In this document: positions 19,046-27,690 of the stretch, piece after piece
Layout of the letters: each line of letters opens with the position of its first letter
Position numbering within the stretch: the first letter of the stretch is position 1
From: Escherichia coli
Lineage (GTDB): Bacteria > Pseudomonadota > Gammaproteobacteria > Enterobacterales > Enterobacteriaceae
Length of the DNA stretch: 64,000 nucleotides
Direction: 5' to 3' (one strand)
NCBI RefSeq assembly: GCF_050920415.1
Contig: NZ_CP169309.1
Made by a program: the position numbers and the translations under genes
Notes under the pieces: model-generated
Told to the model about the DNA's origin: nothing
Databases searched by the model: none
Seen by the model: the letters and a program-made list of their open reading frames with translations, nothing else

Positions 19046-19284
19046 GTGTTCCTGTTCTGTGCATCCCGTCACAAATTCCTCACTTTTGTAATTCAGGCAT
19101 TTAATCGCATTTTGTGAGCCTGCTCAAATCTGCCCATTTTGCCTCTCTGGCGGCAATTTACTTTACGTAAAACATGCATACTATGAGCACATGTTTAAAT
19201 ATGAACACATGTTTAAACCGTCTTTGCAGTATCTATATTCTTGTGGATTGACAGGGTTGGTAATTTTTTACCAGAGGACGTGCT

Positions 19285-20226
19285 ATGCGCGAAAAGGATT
19301 ATGTCGTAATTATAGGCTCGGCGAATATTGATGTCGCCGGATATTCACATGAATCATTAAATTATGCGGATTCAAATCCAGGTAAAATAAAATTTACGCC
19401 TGGTGGGGTAGGGCGCAATATTGCACAAAACCTGGCGTTGCTGGGTAATAAAGCCTGGCTACTGAGCGCCGTAGGCAGTGATTTTTATGGTCAATCGCTG
19501 CTAACGCAAACTAATCAATCTGGCGTTTATGTCGATAAATGCCTGATTGTGCCGGGAGAAAATACGTCGAGCTATTTATCATTACTCGATAATACCGGTG
19601 AAATGCTGGTTGCTATAAATGACATGAATATTAGCAACGCTATTACAGCTGAATATCTCGCACAGCACCGTGAATTTATTCAGAGGGCAAAGGTCATTGT
19701 CGCGGACTGTAATATCAGTGAAGAGGCACTGGCATGGATTCTGGATAATGCCGCCAACGTACCCGTATTTGTCGATCCTGTTTCTGCGTGGAAATGTGTC
19801 AAAGTGCGCGACCGTCTAAATCTGATCCACACTCTCAAGCCAAACCGCCTTGAAGCGGAAACCCTGAGTGGGATTGCGTTGTCAGGGCGTGAAGATGTGG
19901 AAAAGGTTGCCGCCTGGTTCCATCAACATGGCCTGAACCGACTGGTATTGAGCATGGGCGGCGACGGCGTTTATTACAGTGATATTAGCGGTGAAAGTGG
20001 TTGGTCTGCGCCGATTAAAACCAATGTCATTAATGTTACCGGAGCGGGCGATGCCATGATGGCGGGACTTGCTTCGTGTTGGGTAGACGGAATGCCGTTT
20101 GCCGAATCTGTTCGTTTCGCACAGGGATGTTCGTCAATGGCGCTCTCCTGTGAATACACCAATAACCCCGATTTATCGATTGCCAACGTTATATCGTTAG
20201 TGGAGAACGCAGAATGTCTGAATTAA
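19285..20226 (+). CDS. psuK: Pseudouridine kinase (PfkB family)
   Basis: 313 aa; ATG at 19285; overlaps psuG by 13 nt. Confidence 0.9.
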   Translation: MREKDYVVIIGSANIDVAGYSHESLNYADSNPGKIKFTPGGVGRNIAQNLALLGNKAWLLSAVGSDFYGQSLLTQTNQSGVYVDKCLIVPGENTSSYLSLLDNTGEMLVAINDMNISNAITAEYLAQHREFIQRAKVIVADCNISEEALAWILDNAANVPVFVDPVSAWKCVKVRDRLNLIHTLKPNRLEAETLSGIALSGREDVEKVAAWFHQHGLNRLVLSMGGDGVYYSDISGESGWSAPIKTNVINVTGAGDAMMAGLASCWVDGMPFAESVRFAQGCSSMALSCEYTNNPDLSIANVISLVENAECLN

Positions 20227-21152
20227 AAATTTCCCCTGAATTATTACAAATTTCCCCGGAAGTGCAGGACGCTTTAAAAAACAAAAAACCGGTTGTGGCA
20301 CTGGAATCGACCATTATTTCTCACGGGATGCCGTTCCCGCAAAATGCTGAGACGGCAATTGAAGTAGAAGACACAATTCGTAAGCACGGTGCTGTACCTG
20401 CAACAATCGCCATTATTGGTGGTGTCATGAAAGTAGGTTTGAGCAAAGAAGAAATTGAATTGTTAGGCCGTGAAGGACATAACGTGACGAAAGTCAGTCG
20501 CCGTGATTTACCTTTTGTCGTTGCCACAGGAAAAAATGGCGCGACCACCGTTGCTTCAACGATGATTATCGCGGCACTGGCAGGAATTAAAGTATTTGCA
20601 ACGGGGGGTATTGGTGGTGTACATCGCGGTGCGGAACATACATTCGATATTTCTGCCGATTTACAGGAACTGGCAAATACTAATGTCACCGTTGTTTGTG
20701 CCGGTGCAAAATCTATTCTCGATTTAGGATTAACAACAGAATATTTAGAAACCTTCGGTGTACCGTTAATTGGCTATCAGACAAAAGCGCTGCCTGCGTT
20801 TTTCTGCCGTACCAGCCCATTTGAAGTCAGTATTCGCCTTGATAGTGCCACGGAAATCGCTCGTGCAATGGCAGTGAAATGGCAAACCGGTTTGAACGGC
20901 GGCCTGGTAGTGGCGAATCCGATCCCGGAGCAGTTTGCGATGCCGGAGGAATCTATCAATGCAGCCATAGATCAAGCTGTCGCCGAAGCCGAAGAGCAGG
21001 GCGTTATTGGTAAAGAAAGTACACCGTTCCTGCTGGCTCGTGTTGCTGAACTGACCGGTGGTGACAGCCTGAAATCCAACATCCAACTGGTGTTCAACAA
21101 CGCCATTCTGGCGAGCGAAATTGCCAAAGAATACCAGCGTCTCGCGGGTTAA
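20214..21152 (+). CDS. psuG: Pseudouridine-5'-phosphate glycosidase
   Basis: 312 aa; operon with psuK and psuT. Confidence 0.9.
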   Translation: MSELKISPELLQISPEVQDALKNKKPVVALESTIISHGMPFPQNAETAIEVEDTIRKHGAVPATIAIIGGVMKVGLSKEEIELLGREGHNVTKVSRRDLPFVVATGKNGATTVASTMIIAALAGIKVFATGGIGGVHRGAEHTFDISADLQELANTNVTVVCAGAKSILDLGLTTEYLETFGVPLIGYQTKALPAFFCRTSPFEVSIRLDSATEIARAMAVKWQTGLNGGLVVANPIPEQFAMPEESINAAIDQAVAEAEEQGVIGKESTPFLLARVAELTGGDSLKSNIQLVFNNAILASEIAKEYQRLAG

Positions 21153-21245
21153 TTTCTGACGGGCAGAAAGCCGTCGCCCGTACTGATCATACATACCAAA
21201 ACCTGGCGCTAGCGCCGGGTTTACTGGCATGAAAGGAAAATCATT

Positions 21246-22496
21246 ATGGATATAATGAGAAGTTTGGTGGGTATGGTGGTATTGCTGGCAATTGCATTCT
21301 TATTGTCAGTGAATAAAAAAGGTATCAGCATACGCACGGTCGGGGCTGCATTGCTGCTGCAAATCGCTATTGGTGGCATTATGCTCTACTTCCCACCGGG
21401 AAAATGGGCAGTAGAGCAGGCGGCATTAGGCGTGCATAAAGTGATGTCTTACAGTGATGCCGGTAGCGCCTTCATTTTTGGTTCGCTGGTTGGGCCGAAA
21501 ATGGATGTCCTGTTTGATGGCGCGGGCTTTATCTTCGCCTTTCGCGTACTTCCGGCAATTATTTTCGTCACAGCGCTCATCAGCCTGCTGTACTACATTG
21601 GCGTGATGGGGCTGCTAATCCGCATTCTTGGCAGTATTTTTCAGAAAGCCCTCAACATCAGCAAAATCGAATCTTTTGTTGCGGTTACCACTATTTTCCT
21701 CGGGCAAAATGAGATCCCGGCGATCGTTAAACCGTTTATCGATCGCATGAATCGCAACGAGCTATTTACGGCAATTTGTAGCGGGATGGCGTCCATTGCC
21801 GGTTCGATGATGATTGGTTATGCCGGAATGGGCGTACCAATTGACTACCTGTTAGCGGCATCGCTGATGGCGATCCCTGGTGGTATTTTGTTTGCACGTA
21901 TTCTTAGCCCAGCCACCGAGCCTTCGCAGGTGACATTTGAAAATCTGTCGTTCAGCGAAACGCCGCCAAAAAGTTTTATCGAAGCGGCGGCGAGCGGTGC
22001 GATGACCGGGTTGAAAATCGCCGCTGGTGTGGCGACGGTGGTAATGGCGTTTGTGGCAATTATTGCGCTGATCAACGGCATTATCGGCGGAATTGGTGGC
22101 TGGTTTGGTTTTTCCAATGCCTCTCTGGAAAGTATTTTTGGCTATGTGCTGGCACCGCTGGCGTGGATCATGGGCGTGGACTGGAGTGATGCCAACCTTG
22201 CGGGTAGTCTGATTGGGCAGAAACTGGCGATTAACGAATTCGTCGCTTACCTGAGTTTCTCCCCATACCTGCAAACGGGCGGCACGCTGGAAGTGAAAAC
22301 CATTGCGATTATCTCCTTTGCGCTTTGTGGTTTTGCTAACTTTGGTTCTATCGGTGTAGTCGTTGGGGCGTTTTCGGCTATTTCGCCAAAACGCGCGCCG
22401 GAAATCGCCCAGCTTGGGTTACGGGCGCTGGCAGCAGCAACGCTTTCCAACCTGATGAGCGCGACCATTGCCGGGTTCTTTATTGGTTTAGCTTGA
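21246..22496 (+). CDS. psuT: Nucleoside (pseudouridine) transporter, NupC/CNT family
   Basis: 416 aa multi-TM; close paralogue of nupX at 24436. Confidence 0.9.
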   Translation: MDIMRSLVGMVVLLAIAFLLSVNKKGISIRTVGAALLLQIAIGGIMLYFPPGKWAVEQAALGVHKVMSYSDAGSAFIFGSLVGPKMDVLFDGAGFIFAFRVLPAIIFVTALISLLYYIGVMGLLIRILGSIFQKALNISKIESFVAVTTIFLGQNEIPAIVKPFIDRMNRNELFTAICSGMASIAGSMMIGYAGMGVPIDYLLAASLMAIPGGILFARILSPATEPSQVTFENLSFSETPPKSFIEAAASGAMTGLKIAAGVATVVMAFVAIIALINGIIGGIGGWFGFSNASLESIFGYVLAPLAWIMGVDWSDANLAGSLIGQKLAINEFVAYLSFSPYLQTGGTLEVKTIAIISFALCGFANFGSIGVVVGAFSAISPKRAPEIAQLGLRALAAATLSNLMSATIAGFFIGLA

Positions 22497-22504
22497 GTTT
22501 CATT

Positions 22505-22540
22505 GCCGGATGTACGCGCTTATTAAGCGTTGCATCCGGT
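22505..22540. repeat. REP-like palindromic element
   Basis: gccggatg...catccgg palindrome between convergent psuT and yeiL. Confidence 0.6.
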
Positions 22541-22566
22541 AATCACGTACTATTCCAGATTATTTT

Positions 22567-23226
22567 TTACTGCATCATCCCGGAGAATTTATTCTCCGGG
22601 TCCATCTCCAGCGCCAGCCCTAACAACTGCTTTCTGTTTTTAATCAGATACCCTTTCTTGCTTTTAATTAATAAACCGTCATGAATGAATTGCGCGAGAA
22701 CATATAAAAGATGTCGATAAGAAACGCCCAAATACTCTGCCGCTTGCGTATGCTTTTCGTGATAAAGATCACCTTCCTGCGAGAGTAATATAAAAGCTGC
22801 CAGGCGATTCACTAACGGAAATGATTGATTCTGAGTTAAAGAAACAATATTACGATAATTTTTATGACTTAAGGTGACGCAGAGTTTTCGTAAAAATAGC
22901 GTGTCGTTTAATAACAGCGGACGGTAATGTTTCATGGGGAGTGCAAGGCACCAACACTCTTCAATCGCCTGTACCGCTCGTGGTTCATGATCTTTATCGA
23001 TTAACTCAATCTCGCCAATAAAACAGGGTGCAGCAAAGAAATCAATCAGCGACACGCGACCATTAGCAAGCGTGGCGTAAAGCCTGGCGCGGCCTCGCGT
23101 CAGGTAAAACAGCCATGACGGCTGTTGCCCTTCCTGCACAATGTAGTCACGCGCTAAAAAATGAAACAGCCGTGTATCGGCTGAAACATCCGTTGAAAAG
23201 CAATCCTTATACGCGGACTCACTCAT
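22567..23226 (-). CDS. yeiL: CRP/FNR-family transcriptional regulator
   Basis: ORF 22567..23265 trimmed to MSESAYKD start (219 aa). Confidence 0.85.
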
Positions 23227-23394
23227 CAATTGCTGCTTAAGATCATTATTGTGGATTTCTTTCACGATGTTTATCCGCTATGAGATTTCTCATATTTAGC
23301 ATACGTACGCTGTTGTTAAGATTCAATCATCGGCCCGGTCGAATTTTCTTTGCTGTAGAAAAAATAACGCAACTGGAAACAGAGGAAATAAACA

Positions 23395-24336
23395 ATGGAA
23401 AAGAGAAAAATTATTCTGGATTGTGATCCGGGTCATGATGATGCTATTGCCATAATGATGGCCGCGAAACATCCGGCGATTGATTTATTAGGTATCACTA
23501 TTGTGGCGGGGAATCAAACCCTCGATAAAACATTAATTAATGGTCTGAATGTTTGCCAGAAACTGGAGATTAACGTTCCGGTTTATGCGGGGATGCCGCA
23601 ACCCATTATGCGTCAACAAATCGTTGCTGATAATATTCACGGTGAAACCGGACTGGATGGCCCGGTATTCGAACCGCTGACCCGTCAGGCAGAAAACACC
23701 CATGCGGTGAAATATATCATCGATACCCTGATGGCAAGCGATGGCGATATCACTCTGGTGCCGGTTGGTCCGCTTTCAAATATCGCGGTGGCAATGCGTA
23801 TGCAGCCCGCAATCCTGCCGAAAATCCGTGAAATTGTGCTAATGGGCGGCGCTTACGGTACTGGCAACTTCACCCCATCTGCCGAGTTCAACATCTTTGC
23901 TGACCCGGAAGCGGCGCGAGTGGTGTTCACCTCCGGCGTTCCATTAGTGATGATGGGCCTCGATCTCACCAACCAGACCGTTTGCACTCCGGACGTGATT
24001 GCTCGGATGGAAAGGGCAGGCGGCCCTGCCGGAGAGTTGTTCAGCGACATCATGAACTTCACTCTGAAAACCCAGTTCGAAAACTACGGTCTGGCTGGCG
24101 GCCCGGTACATGACGCCACCTGTATCGGTTATCTGATTAACCCTGATGGCATTAAAACCCAGGAGATGTACGTCGACGTGGACGTTAACAGTGGCCCTTG
24201 TTACGGGCGTACCGTCTGCGACGAGCTGGGCGTTCTTGGCAAGCCCGCCAATACCAAAGTCGGCATCACTATTGATACCGACTGGTTCTGGGGATTAGTC
24301 GAAGAGTGCGTGCGCGGCTACATCAAAACCCATTAA
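23395..24336 (+). CDS. rihB: Pyrimidine-specific ribonucleoside hydrolase
   Basis: 313 aa; N-terminal DCDPGHDDA nucleoside-hydrolase motif. Confidence 0.95.
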
Positions 24337-24435
24337 GTGTTGATAACAAGCCGGGACAGTATCGCAAGATGCAGGCCCGGCTATTTCTGATGGGCAGAAA
24401 GACGTCGCCCAAAATGACATGAAGAGATAATAACT

Positions 24436-25686
24436 ATGGATGTCATGAGAAGTGTTCTGGGAATGGTGGTATTGCTGGCAATTGCGTTTTTGCTGTCAGT
24501 AAACAAGAAGAAGATCAGCCTGCGTACCGTTGGCGCGGCGTTAGTGTTACAGCTCGTGATTGGCGGCATTATGCTTTGGTTACCACCAGGGCGTTGGGTC
24601 GCAGAAAAAGTCGCTTTTGGCGTCCATAAAGTGATGGCGTACAGCGATGCAGGTAGCGCTTTTATCTTCGGTTCTCTGGTCGGACCGAAAATGGACACCT
24701 TATTTGATGGCGCAGGATTTATCTTTGGTTTCAGGGTATTACCGGCAATTATCTTCGTCACTGCACTGGTGAGTATTCTCTACTACATCGGTGTAATGGG
24801 GATCTTAATTCGCATTCTCGGCGGTATCTTCCAGAAAGCGTTAAATATCAGCAAGATTGAGTCATTCGTCGCGGTCACTACCATTTTCCTCGGGCAAAAC
24901 GAAATTCCGGCAATCGTCAAACCCTTTATCGATCGTCTGAATCGCAATGAATTATTTACAGCGATTTGTAGCGGGATGGCCTCGATTGCTGGTTCGACAA
25001 TGATTGGTTACGCCGCACTGGGCGTGCCTGTGGAATATCTGCTGGCGGCATCGTTAATGGCGATCCCTGGCGGGATCTTGTTTGCCCGCATGTTAAGTCC
25101 GGCTACGGAATCTTCGCAGGTTTCCTTTAATAACCTCTCTTTCACCGAAACACCGCCAAAAAGCATTATTGAAGCCGCTGCTACAGGGGCAATGACCGGG
25201 CTGAAAATCGCTGCGGGTGTGGCGACAGTGGTGATGGCATTTGTCGCCATCATTGCGTTGATCAACGGTGTTATCGGCGGCGTTGGTGGCTGGTTTGGTT
25301 TTGAACATGCCTCGCTGGAGTCCATTTTAGGTTACCTGCTGGCCCCGCTGGCGTGGGTGATGGGTGTTGACTGGAGTGATGCGAATCTTGCCGGAAGTTT
25401 GATTGGACAGAAACTGGCGATTAATGAATTTGTCGCTTACCTCAATTTCTCACCTTATCTGCAAACAGCTGGCACTCTGGATGCTAAAACCGTGGCGATT
25501 ATTTCCTTCGCGTTGTGCGGTTTCGCTAACTTTGGTTCTATCGGGGTGGTGGTTGGCGCATTTTCTGCGGTTGCGCCACACCGTGCGCCGGAAATCGCCC
25601 AGCTTGGTTTACGCGCGCTGGCGGCGGCGACACTTTCTAATCTGATGAGTGCCACCATTGCAGGATTCTTTATTGGCTTAGCGTAG
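24436..25686 (+). CDS. nupX: Nucleoside transporter, NupC/CNT family
   Basis: 416 aa; high identity to psuT throughout. Confidence 0.9.
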   Translation: MDVMRSVLGMVVLLAIAFLLSVNKKKISLRTVGAALVLQLVIGGIMLWLPPGRWVAEKVAFGVHKVMAYSDAGSAFIFGSLVGPKMDTLFDGAGFIFGFRVLPAIIFVTALVSILYYIGVMGILIRILGGIFQKALNISKIESFVAVTTIFLGQNEIPAIVKPFIDRLNRNELFTAICSGMASIAGSTMIGYAALGVPVEYLLAASLMAIPGGILFARMLSPATESSQVSFNNLSFTETPPKSIIEAAATGAMTGLKIAAGVATVVMAFVAIIALINGVIGGVGGWFGFEHASLESILGYLLAPLAWVMGVDWSDANLAGSLIGQKLAINEFVAYLNFSPYLQTAGTLDAKTVAIISFALCGFANFGSIGVVVGAFSAVAPHRAPEIAQLGLRALAAATLSNLMSATIAGFFIGLA

Positions 25687-25700
25687 TGCGCGAGTTATGA

Positions 25701-25734
25701 GCCGGATAAGACGCGGTCAAGCGTCGAATCCGGC
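25701..25734. repeat. REP element
   Basis: gccggataagacgcg...cgtcgaatccggc between nupX and yeiI. Confidence 0.65.
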
Positions 25735-25741
25735 AAGATTG

Positions 25742-26830
25742 TTACACCATCGGCACTAATGAAAGCGCGTTATCGGCAGACAGGGTAGGGTTGTTTAAGC
25801 TGCCGCTGGCGCGTGAAATTGCCGCGCAGGCCATCGCAAAACGGGCACTATCACGGAAACTGCTTCCTTCCAGAAAGCTATACACCAGGCCCGCCATAAA
25901 ACCATCGTCAGCACCAAAACTGTCTACCGTCGTATGCGCTGGCGCAGTCAGCAAAAATTGTTCGCCATCCTTTTGGCTGCAATAAACAGACTCATCGGGC
26001 AAATAAACAAACAGTTGCTGAACGCCTTGCTGATGCAACGCATTCACTGCGGCATTACGATCAGCATCGCGGGTTATCGGCTGGCCCCATAAAATTTCCA
26101 GCTCCGGCAAAGTGGGTTTCAGAGTGTGAATATGCGCCAGCCAGTGTTTGATTTTGCCCGCTTTGAATTCTGAAACGGTATCGACAAACACCGGGATTTC
26201 ATCAGCGAGGGTAAAGACCCACTCCAGCGCCTCGGCTGTCAGGTTGCAATCAGCCAGTACCACGCCCGCATGACGAAGTAAATCGCGCGACCCGTTCAGT
26301 AGTTGCGGTGTCAACTGATCCAGCAGATGGGTATCGTTAATCGCCAGCACGGTTTGATCGTCTCGATTGGCAATTGCCAGATACGTCGATGTGCTTTGAC
26401 CATGTAAACGAACGCAGCCGGAGACATTCACGCCGGCGCGGCGCGTTTCTTCCAGGAGCATTTCGCCATAAAAGTCATCGCCAATCACTGAAAGCAAATG
26501 GACGTCGCGGCCTAACAGCGCCAGATTGTGGGCGATATTGCGTCCAACGCCGCCTGCCGAGCAATGAATTGTACCGGGATGAGAAGCCGCTTGCGGGTAA
26601 CGGATATCCGCCATCCCGCGAATATCCATATTGATTGTCCCCACCACTACGCAGTATTCCTGCTCGGTGAGAATGTAACCTTTGCCTTTAATCCGACCTT
26701 TGCGCATTAAATCCATAATATGCGCTGCAACACGCGAACGGCTGATTTGCAGCATATCCGCAATTTCGTTCTGCTGAATCAGCGGGTTACGCCTTAATAT
26801 TGCAAGGATCTCCTTCTCCCGGTTATTCAT
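25742..26830 (-). CDS. yeiI: HTH-domain plus PfkB-family sugar kinase
   Basis: 362 aa; N-terminal HTH, C-terminal carbohydrate kinase fold. Confidence 0.85.
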   Translation of the reverse strand: MNNREKEILAILRRNPLIQQNEIADMLQISRSRVAAHIMDLMRKGRIKGKGYILTEQEYCVVVGTINMDIRGMADIRYPQAASHPGTIHCSAGGVGRNIAHNLALLGRDVHLLSVIGDDFYGEMLLEETRRAGVNVSGCVRLHGQSTSTYLAIANRDDQTVLAINDTHLLDQLTPQLLNGSRDLLRHAGVVLADCNLTAEALEWVFTLADEIPVFVDTVSEFKAGKIKHWLAHIHTLKPTLPELEILWGQPITRDADRNAAVNALHQQGVQQLFVYLPDESVYCSQKDGEQFLLTAPAHTTVDSFGADDGFMAGLVYSFLEGSSFRDSARFAMACAAISRASGSLNNPTLSADNALSLVPMV

Positions 26831-26832
26831 CT

Positions 26833-27690
26833 TCAGGCTACCGCTTTTTCAGTTTGTTGCGCTTTCAGCCAGGCGATTTCTTCTGCCCAGATATCCGGGT
26901 TGATGGTTTCAAGGATCAGCGGAATACCGTCGAAACGGTCGTCCTGCATAATCCAGCGGAACGCATCGTGGCCGATATTGCCTTCACCGAGGCTATGATG
27001 ACGGTCAACGCGGCTGCCAAAGGTACTTTTCGCATCGTTAAGATGCATACCGCGTAGATACTTAAAGCCGACAATACGGGCAAAATCCGCGAACGTTTTC
27101 TCGCATTCGGCTGGAGTACGCAAATCATACCCGGCAGCGAAAGCATGGCAGGTATCAATGCAGACGCCGACGCGGGATTTATCTTCCACGCCGGCGATAA
27201 TCGCCGCGAGATGTTCGAATTTAAACCCTAAGTTGCTGCCCTGACCGGCGGTATTTTCAATCACCGCTGTCACACCTTGAGTTTTATCCAGCGCAATGTT
27301 GATGGATTCGGCAATACGCGCAAGGCAATCCTCTTCTGAAATCTGCATCAGATGGCTGCCAGGGTGGAAGTTGAGCAAAGAAAGCCCCAGCTGTTCGCAA
27401 CGCTGCATTTCATCTATAAACGCATCGCGCGATTTTTCCAGAGCTTCAGCGACCGGATGTCCGAGGTTAATCAGATAACTGTCGTGGGGAAGAATTTGCG
27501 CCGATGTGTAGTGATATTTTTCACAGGCGGCTTTGAATTCATCGATGGTTTGCGTCGTGAGCGGTGCGGCACGCCACTGACGTTGGTTTTTGGTGAACAA
27601 GGCAAACGCGGTTGCGTCGATTTCGGCGGCGCGAATTGCGGCATTTGCCAGACCGCCAGCAGCACTAACGTGCGCTCCAATGTATTTCAT
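26833..27690 (-). CDS. nfo: Endonuclease IV (AP endonuclease)
   Basis: 285 aa [13 protein letters not shown]... typical Nfo N-terminus. Confidence 0.95.

Follow-up and report, generated by a model that had tools for sequence, protein, structure and literature searches.

We analyzed a 64-kb stretch of the Escherichia coli chromosome (64,000 nucleotides, nt; hereafter the window), in which two paralogous nucleoside transporter genes, psuT and nupX, are each preceded by a copy of the same short RNA hairpin. The region 20214-26830 is 100% identical to the RefSeq-annotated sequence of E. coli strain MFDS1022581, where the gene order is psuK-psuG-psuT, yeiL (opposite strand), rihB-nupX, followed by yeiI and nfo (opposite strand). 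As the first-pass annotation of the window had described, psuT and nupX are open reading frames (ORFs) of 416 amino acids (aa) in direct orientation, about 2 kb apart around yeiL and rihB; the gap between them is 1,939 nt (Table 1). RefSeq labels both products as NupC/NupG family CNT transporters, and their near-identical homologs (98-99%) carry the Pfam families PF01773, PF07670 and PF07662 (Nucleos_tra2_N, Gate and Nucleos_tra2_C), which places them in the CNT family; the same three families are recorded on the transporter genes of the related loci. The paralogy of psuT and nupX is already known, PsuT is without demonstrated substrate, and NupX moves uridine and cytidine only weakly (PMC11241209). 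The K-12 annotation gives no regulation for psuT, nupX, rihB or yeiL, and the K-12 RefSeq record contains no annotated feature in either of the intergenic regions upstream of the two transporter genes.

Comparison of the 200 nt upstream of psuT with those upstream of nupX returned, as the best local alignment, one 28-nt block, ATTTCTGAYGGGCAGAAAGMCGTCGCCC, with 26 of 28 positions identical and no other similarity. The block ends 66 nt before the start codon of psuT and 25 nt before that of nupX; hence the upstream similarity lies outside the Shine-Dalgarno (SD) region and is not confined to it. The motif noted earlier at 21156-21179 is exactly placed, and its second copy, previously given as 24386-24409, is found one base further on, at 24387-24410. 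Allowing three or fewer mismatches, the block pattern matches two sites in the window, as compared to 0 expected from shuffles, and a 32-nt block query was found in 5,424 of 5,426 complete E. coli genomes at a median of two places per genome, although a BLAST search with a query of this length would miss strongly diverged copies. Such low copy numbers, in the window as in the genomes, led us to reject its identity as a repetitive extragenic palindromic (REP) sequence, a bacterial interspersed mosaic element (BIME) or another dispersed repeat. The genes themselves are 78.7% identical in nucleotide and 87.8% in amino acid sequence (ungapped), with 88, 95 and 52% identity at the three codon positions. 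The nucleotide identity reported as high from the first codons onward is thus only moderate; over the first 60 nt it is 83%. Third-codon identity between the paralogs, calculated segment by segment, is 0.42-0.63 and equals that of orthologs from different genera. Since synonymous sites are near saturation, we consider the duplication to be old, and the 26 of 28 identical positions of the block, kept while neutral sites became saturated, count for a retained element.

To describe this element we aligned 18 distinct leader copies from nine enterobacterial genera without gaps (alignment A1) and counted base pairs for four candidate structures. The structure that is conserved, hereafter hairpin 1, is an outer stem, RYRGGC/GCCYRY, closing an 11-nt loop (A1 columns 6-11 with 23-28, corresponding to 21159-21164 with 21176-21181), which forms standard pairs in 94.4% of the cells of the 18 sequences. 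Three of its six pairs are invariant G-C, and the remaining three exhibit compensatory changes (A-U/G-C/G.U, C-G/U-A/U.G and G-C/A-U). Both the covariation score and the percentage paired were each reached by 0 of 500 shuffles, and every slid register scores lower. The stem changes trace to at least 4-5 separate events on different branches, namely G-C to A-U in Leclercia/Enterobacter, C-G to U-A in the nupX leaders of E. coli and Buttiauxella, and A-U to G-C of the outer pair in Klebsiella michiganensis, K. spallanzanii and Entomohabitans nupX. Hence, hairpin 1 carries the compensatory substitutions across species that characterize structured cis-regulatory RNAs. RNAalifold, given either 11 full psuT-type leaders or 7 nupX-type leaders, independently arrived at the same outer stem, and 7 of 8 isolated orthologous hairpins fold to it (-8 to -12 kcal/mol); in the nupX copy of the strain analyzed here the stem has 5 bp, the outer A.A being unpaired. 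Within the loop, columns G13, G17, G20 and T21 of A1 are invariant and A12, C18 and C22 nearly so, and 17 of the 18 sequences could form an extra G13-C22 pair with one A bulged out. The G.U and U.G stem states of CFT073, Escherichia albertii, Kluyvera nupX and L102 are paired solely in the RNA of the gene strand, which argues that hairpin 1 acts as gene-strand RNA. A covariance model scored these hairpins at 33-46 bits, and over 653 kb no other sequence reached 19 bits. In the nupX copy of strain 13C1065T one stem pair is broken (GCCC to GCCA).

The element shared by the two leaders had been described earlier as a hairpin, and a hairpin is indeed conserved; the pairing that is conserved, however, is the outer GGGC/GCCC stem and not the GACGG/CCGTC helix visible in the motif. 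The latter forms in E. coli psuT and belongs to the minimum free energy (MFE) structure of the full leader, but it pairs in 72% of the A1 cells, has 0 compensatory changes, and one of its pairs is broken in 11 of 18 sequences. A TTTCTG/CAGAAA hairpin or 17-bp palindrome was likewise rejected, being specific to Escherichia and Citrobacter and paired in 63% of cells, and an inner helix (G13.U21, N14.G20 and N15-N19) is weakly supported, with its last pair unpaired in 12 of 18 sequences. A small ORF or leader peptide over the block was also rejected: the ATG (in ATGGGC) occurs only in nupX-type copies and is replaced elsewhere by ACG, GTG, TCG, CCG, GCG or ACA, and the amino acids encoded after the putative ATG change freely across A1. 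A hammerhead-like arrangement (CUGAUG...GAAA...GUC) can be read in E. coli nupX; on inspection its CUGAUG is unconserved elsewhere and stem II is lacking. Searching 20000-27000 against Rfam 15 with cmscan at E<=10 returned only isrJ (18 bits against a gathering score of 37, E=9.2) at 21149-21223, and nothing at the nupX copy. No paper containing the block sequence was found in the literature searched.

We next consider how widely the element occurs. A scan with NupX, using one genome per species, gave eight close relatives and 72 distant CNT genes, and a protein search together with the encoding contigs added K. michiganensis, K. spallanzanii, Buttiauxella, Kluyvera, Entomohabitans, Enterobacter and others. 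Hairpin 1 is found in Escherichia, Citrobacter, Leclercia, Enterobacter, Klebsiella, Kluyvera, Buttiauxella, Superficieibacter and Entomohabitans, where it precedes psuT-type, nupX-type and single-copy transporter genes, at a distance of 25-66 nt from the start codon. The loci differ in layout: Citrobacter, Leclercia, Enterobacter and K. michiganensis have a single transporter gene in the order psuK-psuG-psuT-yeiI-nfo, Buttiauxella and K. spallanzanii have yeiL-rihB-nupX without psuKG, and E. coli, Kluyvera and Entomohabitans possess both modules. In all of them the block lies upstream of the transporter gene, except for Entomohabitans psuT. Since it is present whichever gene lies upstream (psuG or rihB), and with or without yeiL and yeiI, we conclude that the block travels with the transporter gene. 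It is absent from CNT genes of <=72% identity, and at 70 more distant CNT loci no hairpin with the same loop pattern was found upstream of the transporter, nor any covariance-model match above 19 bits. A hairpin of Billgrantia gudaonensis (L021 255-277), GGTGGC-TGTGAGTGGTC-GCCACC, shares the loop pattern and stands 2.7 kb before a distant CNT gene; the covariance model did not recover it at E<=10, and the resemblance is probably due to chance. A metagenome scan with GGGCAGNNNGNNGTCGCCC was uninformative: it gave at least 120 matches, and among the matches listed all were in high-G+C DNA and none adjoined a CNT gene.

The history of the two genes was followed with neighbor-joining trees, which carry no bootstrap values and are thus suggestive only. 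In the tree of the N-terminal halves, psuT-type and nupX-type sequences form separate multi-genus clades, with the single-copy genes of Citrobacter and K. michiganensis on the psuT side, while in the tree of the C-terminal halves the clades are mixed and E. coli psuT groups with E. coli nupX. The old segmental duplication proposed in the first-pass annotation is supported both by the third-codon identity of ~0.5 and by the N-terminal clades. Over the last 52 codons, K-12-like or CFT073 psuT and the nupX allele of L003 have a third-codon identity of 0.85, indicating 3'-end gene conversion between psuT and nupX in some E. coli alleles. Signs of such conversion (22100-22496 versus 25290-25686, and other E. 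coli alleles) also include stop-codon contexts that are swapped between alleles.

In psuT-type leaders hairpin 1 is followed, in this order, by a linker, a second hairpin (hairpin 2), the SD sequence and a hairpin at the start codon (Table 1). The G+C stem of hairpin 2 spans 7 bp and its loop 4 nt, and only TTT follows (TTTT in Leclercia and K. michiganensis); its T count falls below the threshold of 5 T in 8, and it does not appear in the strict terminator scan. The psuT-type leaders and that of K. spallanzanii nupX have hairpin 2, whereas the nupX leaders of E. coli, Buttiauxella and Kluyvera lack it, apparently owing to a deletion between CTGGC direct repeats. Given that several nupX leaders lack hairpin 2 and keep hairpin 1, hairpin 1 is retained independently. 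The conservation of the start-codon hairpin is ambiguous, as its 3' arm is coding. In nupX (24412-24450), codons 2-4 pair with an upstream ATGACAT instead of forming a psuT-style start hairpin; as judged from these predicted pairings, the start regions of both genes would limit translation initiation.

Table 1. Genes and sequence features of the psuT-nupX locus (positions in the window).
Feature	Position	Strand	Description	Basis
psuT	21246..22496	+	416-aa NupC/CNT transporter, last gene of psuK-psuG-psuT	ORF, RefSeq annotation
nupX	24436..25686	+	416-aa psuT paralog, downstream of rihB	ORF, RefSeq annotation
yeiL	22567-23265	-		ORF, RefSeq annotation
rihB	23395-24336	+		ORF, RefSeq annotation
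yeiL and rihB segment	22567..24336	both	lost upon psuT x nupX recombination	
Shared block, copy 1	21152..21179	+	first base is the final base of the psuG stop codon	local alignment, pattern search
Shared block, copy 2	24383..24410	+	47 nt past the rihB stop codon	local alignment, pattern search
Hairpin 1, psuT leader	21159..21181	+	stem ACGGGC/GCCCGT, 11-nt loop AGAAAGCCGTC; isolated MFE -11.1 kcal/mol	covariation, RNAalifold
Hairpin 1, nupX leader	24391..24411	+	stem TGGGC/GCCCA, loop AGAAAGACGTC; isolated MFE -8.3 kcal/mol	
Linker	21182..21198	+	partly conserved, single-stranded, consensus ..ATATCAnnCATACCAAAA	alignment of 11 psuT-type leaders
Hairpin 2	21199..21222	+	terminator-like AAA-CCTGGCG / CGCCGGG-TTT, loop CTAG	RNAalifold consensus, fold
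Start-codon hairpin	21241..21258	+	TCATTAT-GGAT-ATAATGA around the psuT start; 7 bp, all kept in 9-11 of 11 sequences	RNAalifold
Post-rihB hairpin	24349..24382	+	GCCGGG...CCCGGC then TATTT, directly 5' of block copy 2	fold, sequence
Crossover zone	22058..22496 (= nupX 25248-25686)	+	psuT 3' third, most similar part; all mapped crossovers	

Taken together, these observations lead us to propose that both paralogs inherited their leader from a common ancestor and that hairpin 1 controls the transporter cistron in cis, at the post-transcriptional level, a reading that we hold to be rather probable, if not strongly so. One ancestral CNT gene, together with a leader of ~90 nt, would have been duplicated before the sampled enterobacterial genera split, and the 28-nt block would be the surviving core of that leader: a 23-nt stem-loop with a G+C-rich stem of 5-6 bp and the invariant loop bases G, G and GU, possibly extended by one further G-C pair next to a bulged A. 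Transcribed within the psuKGT and rihB-nupX mRNAs, hairpin 1 could serve as a site of recognition or processing through which the level of the membrane transporter becomes independent of that of the enzyme gene upstream; the weak terminator-like hairpin 2 and the start-codon hairpin would assist it in leaders of the psuT type. Its loop would be read by a trans-acting factor, most likely a protein, a specific reader being favored because the loop bases are conserved. That the start codon lies anywhere from 25 to 66 nt away speaks against direct masking of the SD sequence. The first-pass annotation had suggested a retained regulatory or terminator element, of which the first part stands, in view of the conservation with compensatory changes in nine genera; hairpin 1 is, however, not an intrinsic terminator, since its loop has 11 nt (versus 3-8 nt), its 3' flanks (GTACTGAT and AAAATGAC) lack a T run, and it is unlisted in the terminator scan. 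The duplication, the persistence of the leader element in both paralogs and in single-copy orthologs, its covariation and its lack of matches to known DNA sites or Rfam families are direct results, whereas its action as RNA on expression, and the way in which it would act, we infer from comparative sequence evidence. We further speculate that it could be the sensor of an Enterobacteriaceae-restricted riboregulator, either a protein-binding operator or a minimal aptamer, that reads the pyrimidine-nucleoside or pseudouridine status and sets the synthesis of PsuT/NupX-type transporters independently of the upstream enzymes, an idea that we regard as rather doubtful.

Several observations weigh against a control element of this kind. 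Only three pairs of the outer stem vary, and the number of pairs changed on both sides, taken alone, is not significant (it was reached in 84 of 500 shuffles); six of the 18 sequences leave the outermost pair open, and the stem of L100 contains a C.A mismatch. Consensus folds and inspection revealed no alternative pairing that joins hairpin 1 to hairpin 2, the SD sequence or the start codon, and no candidate binding factor was found. In front of Entomohabitans psuT (L088 ~105-150), hairpin 1 is replaced in place by an unrelated, longer perfect hairpin, GCGCTGTTCCCGG...CCGGGAAACAGCGC, which is easier to reconcile with a generic structural role than with a sequence-specific one; nupX of the same genome keeps a normal hairpin 1. 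Finally, a published E. coli data set of transcription start sites and 3' ends has no entry at either intergenic region, and two supplement sets from RIL-seq (RNA interaction by ligation and sequencing) do not mention the psuT/nupX genes, which fits a locus barely expressed in laboratory conditions.

The main rival explanation is a generic structural hairpin that acts as a barrier or end protector, either at the 3' end of psuKG/rihB or at the 5' end of a processed transporter mRNA, with no factor and no signal. Besides the Entomohabitans replacement, which is also the stronger of the two hairpins, its intercistronic position, G+C-rich stem, stability of -8 to -12 kcal/mol, variable distance to the start codon and lack of an alternative pairing or expression platform all suit such a role. 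We nonetheless regard it as unlikely: four invariant and three near-invariant loop positions over nine genera would be unneeded by a pure barrier, and nupX leaders already have the separate post-rihB hairpin, yet keep hairpin 1. The closest parallels are the intercistronic stem-loops of malE-malF (REP), puf and pap, which give the genes of one operon different expression levels; they are likewise stable and G+C-rich, lie between a gene for a soluble enzyme and one for a membrane protein, vary in their distance from the start codon and are not terminators; unlike the malE-malF REP type, hairpin 1 has only two copies per genome and loop bases conserved across genera. It shares a short covarying stem and conserved apical nucleotides with the protein-binding leader hairpins (the thrS operator, the PyrR loop, the ribonucleic antiterminator targets of BglG/SacY and the ribosomal protein operators), but it overlaps neither a terminator nor the SD sequence, has no Rfam model and has no predicted binding protein.

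The block could instead be a DNA operator through which a transcription factor (CytR, NagC, YeiL or YeiI) acts on an internal promoter of the transporter gene. It is an inverted repeat beside nucleoside genes, in the same neighborhood of uptake and catabolism as the operators of the CytR/CRP regulon, and a weak -35/-10-like CTGAYG-17-CAAAAT can be drawn upstream of E. coli nupX; these hexamers are, however, unconserved outside Escherichia, and the promoter scan lists nothing there. CytR operators consist of paired GTTGCATT octamers flanked by CRP sites. Scanning 21130-21260 and 24320-24450 gave no such octamer (<=1 mismatch) and no CRP site (<=2 mismatches), and neither NagC/Mlc-like sites (AT-rich TT-N9-AA palindrome) nor FNR/YeiL-type sites (TTGAT-N4-ATCAA) were present in either intergenic region; no match to the RfaH ops element (GGCGGTAGnnTG, <=2 mismatches) overlaps either block. 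The earlier suggestion of CytR or NagC as the regulator of the motif thus found no matching site. Moreover, the motif is kept in genomes without yeiL (Citrobacter, K. michiganensis, Enterobacter) and without yeiI (Buttiauxella, K. spallanzanii), and its compensatory changes include G.U states, which in DNA are mismatches. The centers of the arms are ~16-17 bp apart, on opposite faces of the B-DNA helix, a spacing that suits a dimeric helix-turn-helix (HTH) protein poorly. Hence, we consider an operator improbable.

CRP-like sites do occur in the promoter regions between fruA and psuK and between yeiL and rihB; relative to the block, CRP-like pairs lie only far upstream, before psuK. Two of them, at 19058-19073 and 19113-19128, have one mismatch each and are 55 bp apart from center to center, a spacing reminiscent of CytR-controlled promoters, so that the CytR idea may fit the psuK promoter rather than the hairpin. 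Between yeiL and rihB, the inverted repeat TATGAGATTTCTCATA (23279-23294; TATGA-N6-TCATA, perfect 5-bp arms) has a layout like that of CRP/FNR-family sites and may be a YeiL site.

A further possibility, which we judge very improbable, is that the block has no function and that its similarity was kept by gene conversion between the paralogs and/or by templated correction of a quasi-palindrome rather than by selection. Template switching can produce symmetric changes in palindromes, gene conversion does occur at this locus (0.85 third-codon identity over the last 52 codons in some allele pairs against ~0.5 elsewhere), and the C-terminal halves cluster by genome, not by paralog. The signal of conversion lies, however, at the 3' ends of the genes and not at their 5' ends, and asymmetric loop bases are conserved too; given that the block is also kept in single-copy genomes (Citrobacter, Leclercia, Enterobacter, K. 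michiganensis, Buttiauxella and K. spallanzanii), gene conversion cannot explain its conservation. Least probable of all is a small-molecule riboswitch, in which hairpin 1 and the A-rich linker form a minimal aptamer for a pyrimidine nucleoside or derivative and control termination at hairpin 2 or translation: the 5-6 bp stem, the 11-nt loop with conserved bases, the conserved A-rich tract followed by a terminator-like hairpin in psuT-type leaders (all recalling preQ1-I aptamers, with their ~5-bp stem and ~11-nt loop) and the location upstream of a transporter gene, a typical target, are outweighed by the lack of any Rfam match even at E<=10, of a pseudoknot partner and of loop-to-tail complementarity or covariation on inspection of 11 leader types, by the nupX leaders of E. 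coli, Buttiauxella and Kluyvera, which keep hairpin 1 without A-rich tract and hairpin 2, and by the narrow distribution, CNT genes of <=72% identity lacking the element. A specific loop-to-linker pseudoknot (GUC with GAC) was rejected, since inspection showed no covariation, as was an antiterminator formed by the 3' arm of hairpin 1 and the 5' arm of hairpin 2, which would have 4-5 bp only, is unconserved and lacks its partner in several nupX leaders.

Besides the leader, the duplicated genes themselves have consequences for the locus, as they had been predicted to be a substrate for homologous recombination that would delete yeiL and rihB. We searched the complete E. coli genomes with psuG joined to yeiI as a query, in which pieces merge only if they are <=1.5 kb apart, and the predicted arrangement, psuG-[psuT/nupX hybrid]-yeiI with a psuG-yeiI gap of 1.4 kb, was found in 5 of the 5,426 assemblies; the yeiL-rihB segment is present in 5,418 of them. 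In each of the five recombinants a single 416-aa transporter gene stands between psuG and yeiI, and yeiL and rihB are missing. When the hybrid genes (L093-L097) were mapped with 112 sites that distinguish psuT from nupX, they proved to be psuT-like at the 5' end, with a downstream flank of nupX type in all five. The hybrid of SY019 switches to nupX-like sequence after nt 812, those of CFSAN004176 and EH10-18-47 switch between nt 933 and 1047, and those of 11PC and E203449 are psuT-like through the last diagnostic site (nt 1058), which gives at least three different crossover intervals. As the strains come from five countries and have different flanking alleles, the five assemblies represent several independent events. 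Thus, a hybrid gene, the loss of one repeat unit and independent crossovers, the marks of deletion by non-allelic homologous recombination, are all found here, and the 79%-identical direct repeats would have recombined to remove yeiL-rihB and leave one hybrid transporter gene. Recombination between rrn operons, between tufA and tufB or between insertion sequence (IS) copies similarly yields a hybrid gene, loss of the intervening segment and differing crossover positions; in contrast to these, the psuT/nupX repeats are only ~79% identical, which would explain why the events are rare, and the crossovers are confined to the 3' third.

Other deletions at the locus do not result from recombination between the two copies, but from IS1, ISKpn26 and microhomology. 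In strain 13C1065T (L091 3493-4190) an IS1 deletion joins a psuG stub to a truncated rihB, and in TUM2820 (L092 5397-6377) an ISKpn26 deletion joins a yeiL stub to a truncated nfo. CFT073 (L001 5719-5790; window ~24500-25640) has a 66-nt stub of nupX, left by an internal deletion of ~1.14 kb at TAA/TAAC microhomology. When the nupX interior was used as a query, the best match was only 80-90% identical in ~985 of 5,430 E. coli records and, among the matches listed, lay on psuT, which suggests that ~18% of complete E. coli genomes lack nupX.

The locus as a whole (20214-26830) is unusually divergent within E. coli, with >=99% identity in 2 of 5,431 records and <90% in ~1,000 of them. Relative to K-12, psuG of the present strain differs by 10.5% and psuT, nupX and rihB by ~5% each, and its psuT differs from that of CFT073 by 10.6%. 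REP-like palindromes of the GCCGGATG...CATCCGGC type follow both psuT (22503-22540) and nupX (25700-25745); the latter gives weak matches to Rfam naRNA4 (23 bits against a gathering score of 59.5), and some strains have an extra 51 nt at this region. YeiI (25742-26830), whose function is stated as unknown in one paper, carries a winged-helix domain (HTH_24) at its N terminus as well as a PfkB kinase domain related to PsuK, an architecture shared by its orthologs in L083, L085, L088 and L089, and could be a kinase-type regulator of the psuT/nupX locus.

We herein describe a covarying leader RNA hairpin outside Rfam and provide direct evidence that the psuT/nupX repeats recombine in nature. The finding is real and the interpretation given in the first-pass annotation was essentially right; both the hairpin and the recombination are well-known kinds of feature and reflect fairly ordinary biology, leaving current concepts unchanged. 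The conserved hairpin nevertheless offers a concrete, mutable handle on the control of psuT and nupX and on the conditions in which the locus is used, and it joins, as a candidate, the few cis-regulatory RNAs of E. coli that Rfam does not contain. The recombinants show that paralogs of 79% identity still cause gene loss in natural populations and, together with the loss of nupX suggested for ~18% of genomes, make the locus a small case study of pan-genome erosion.

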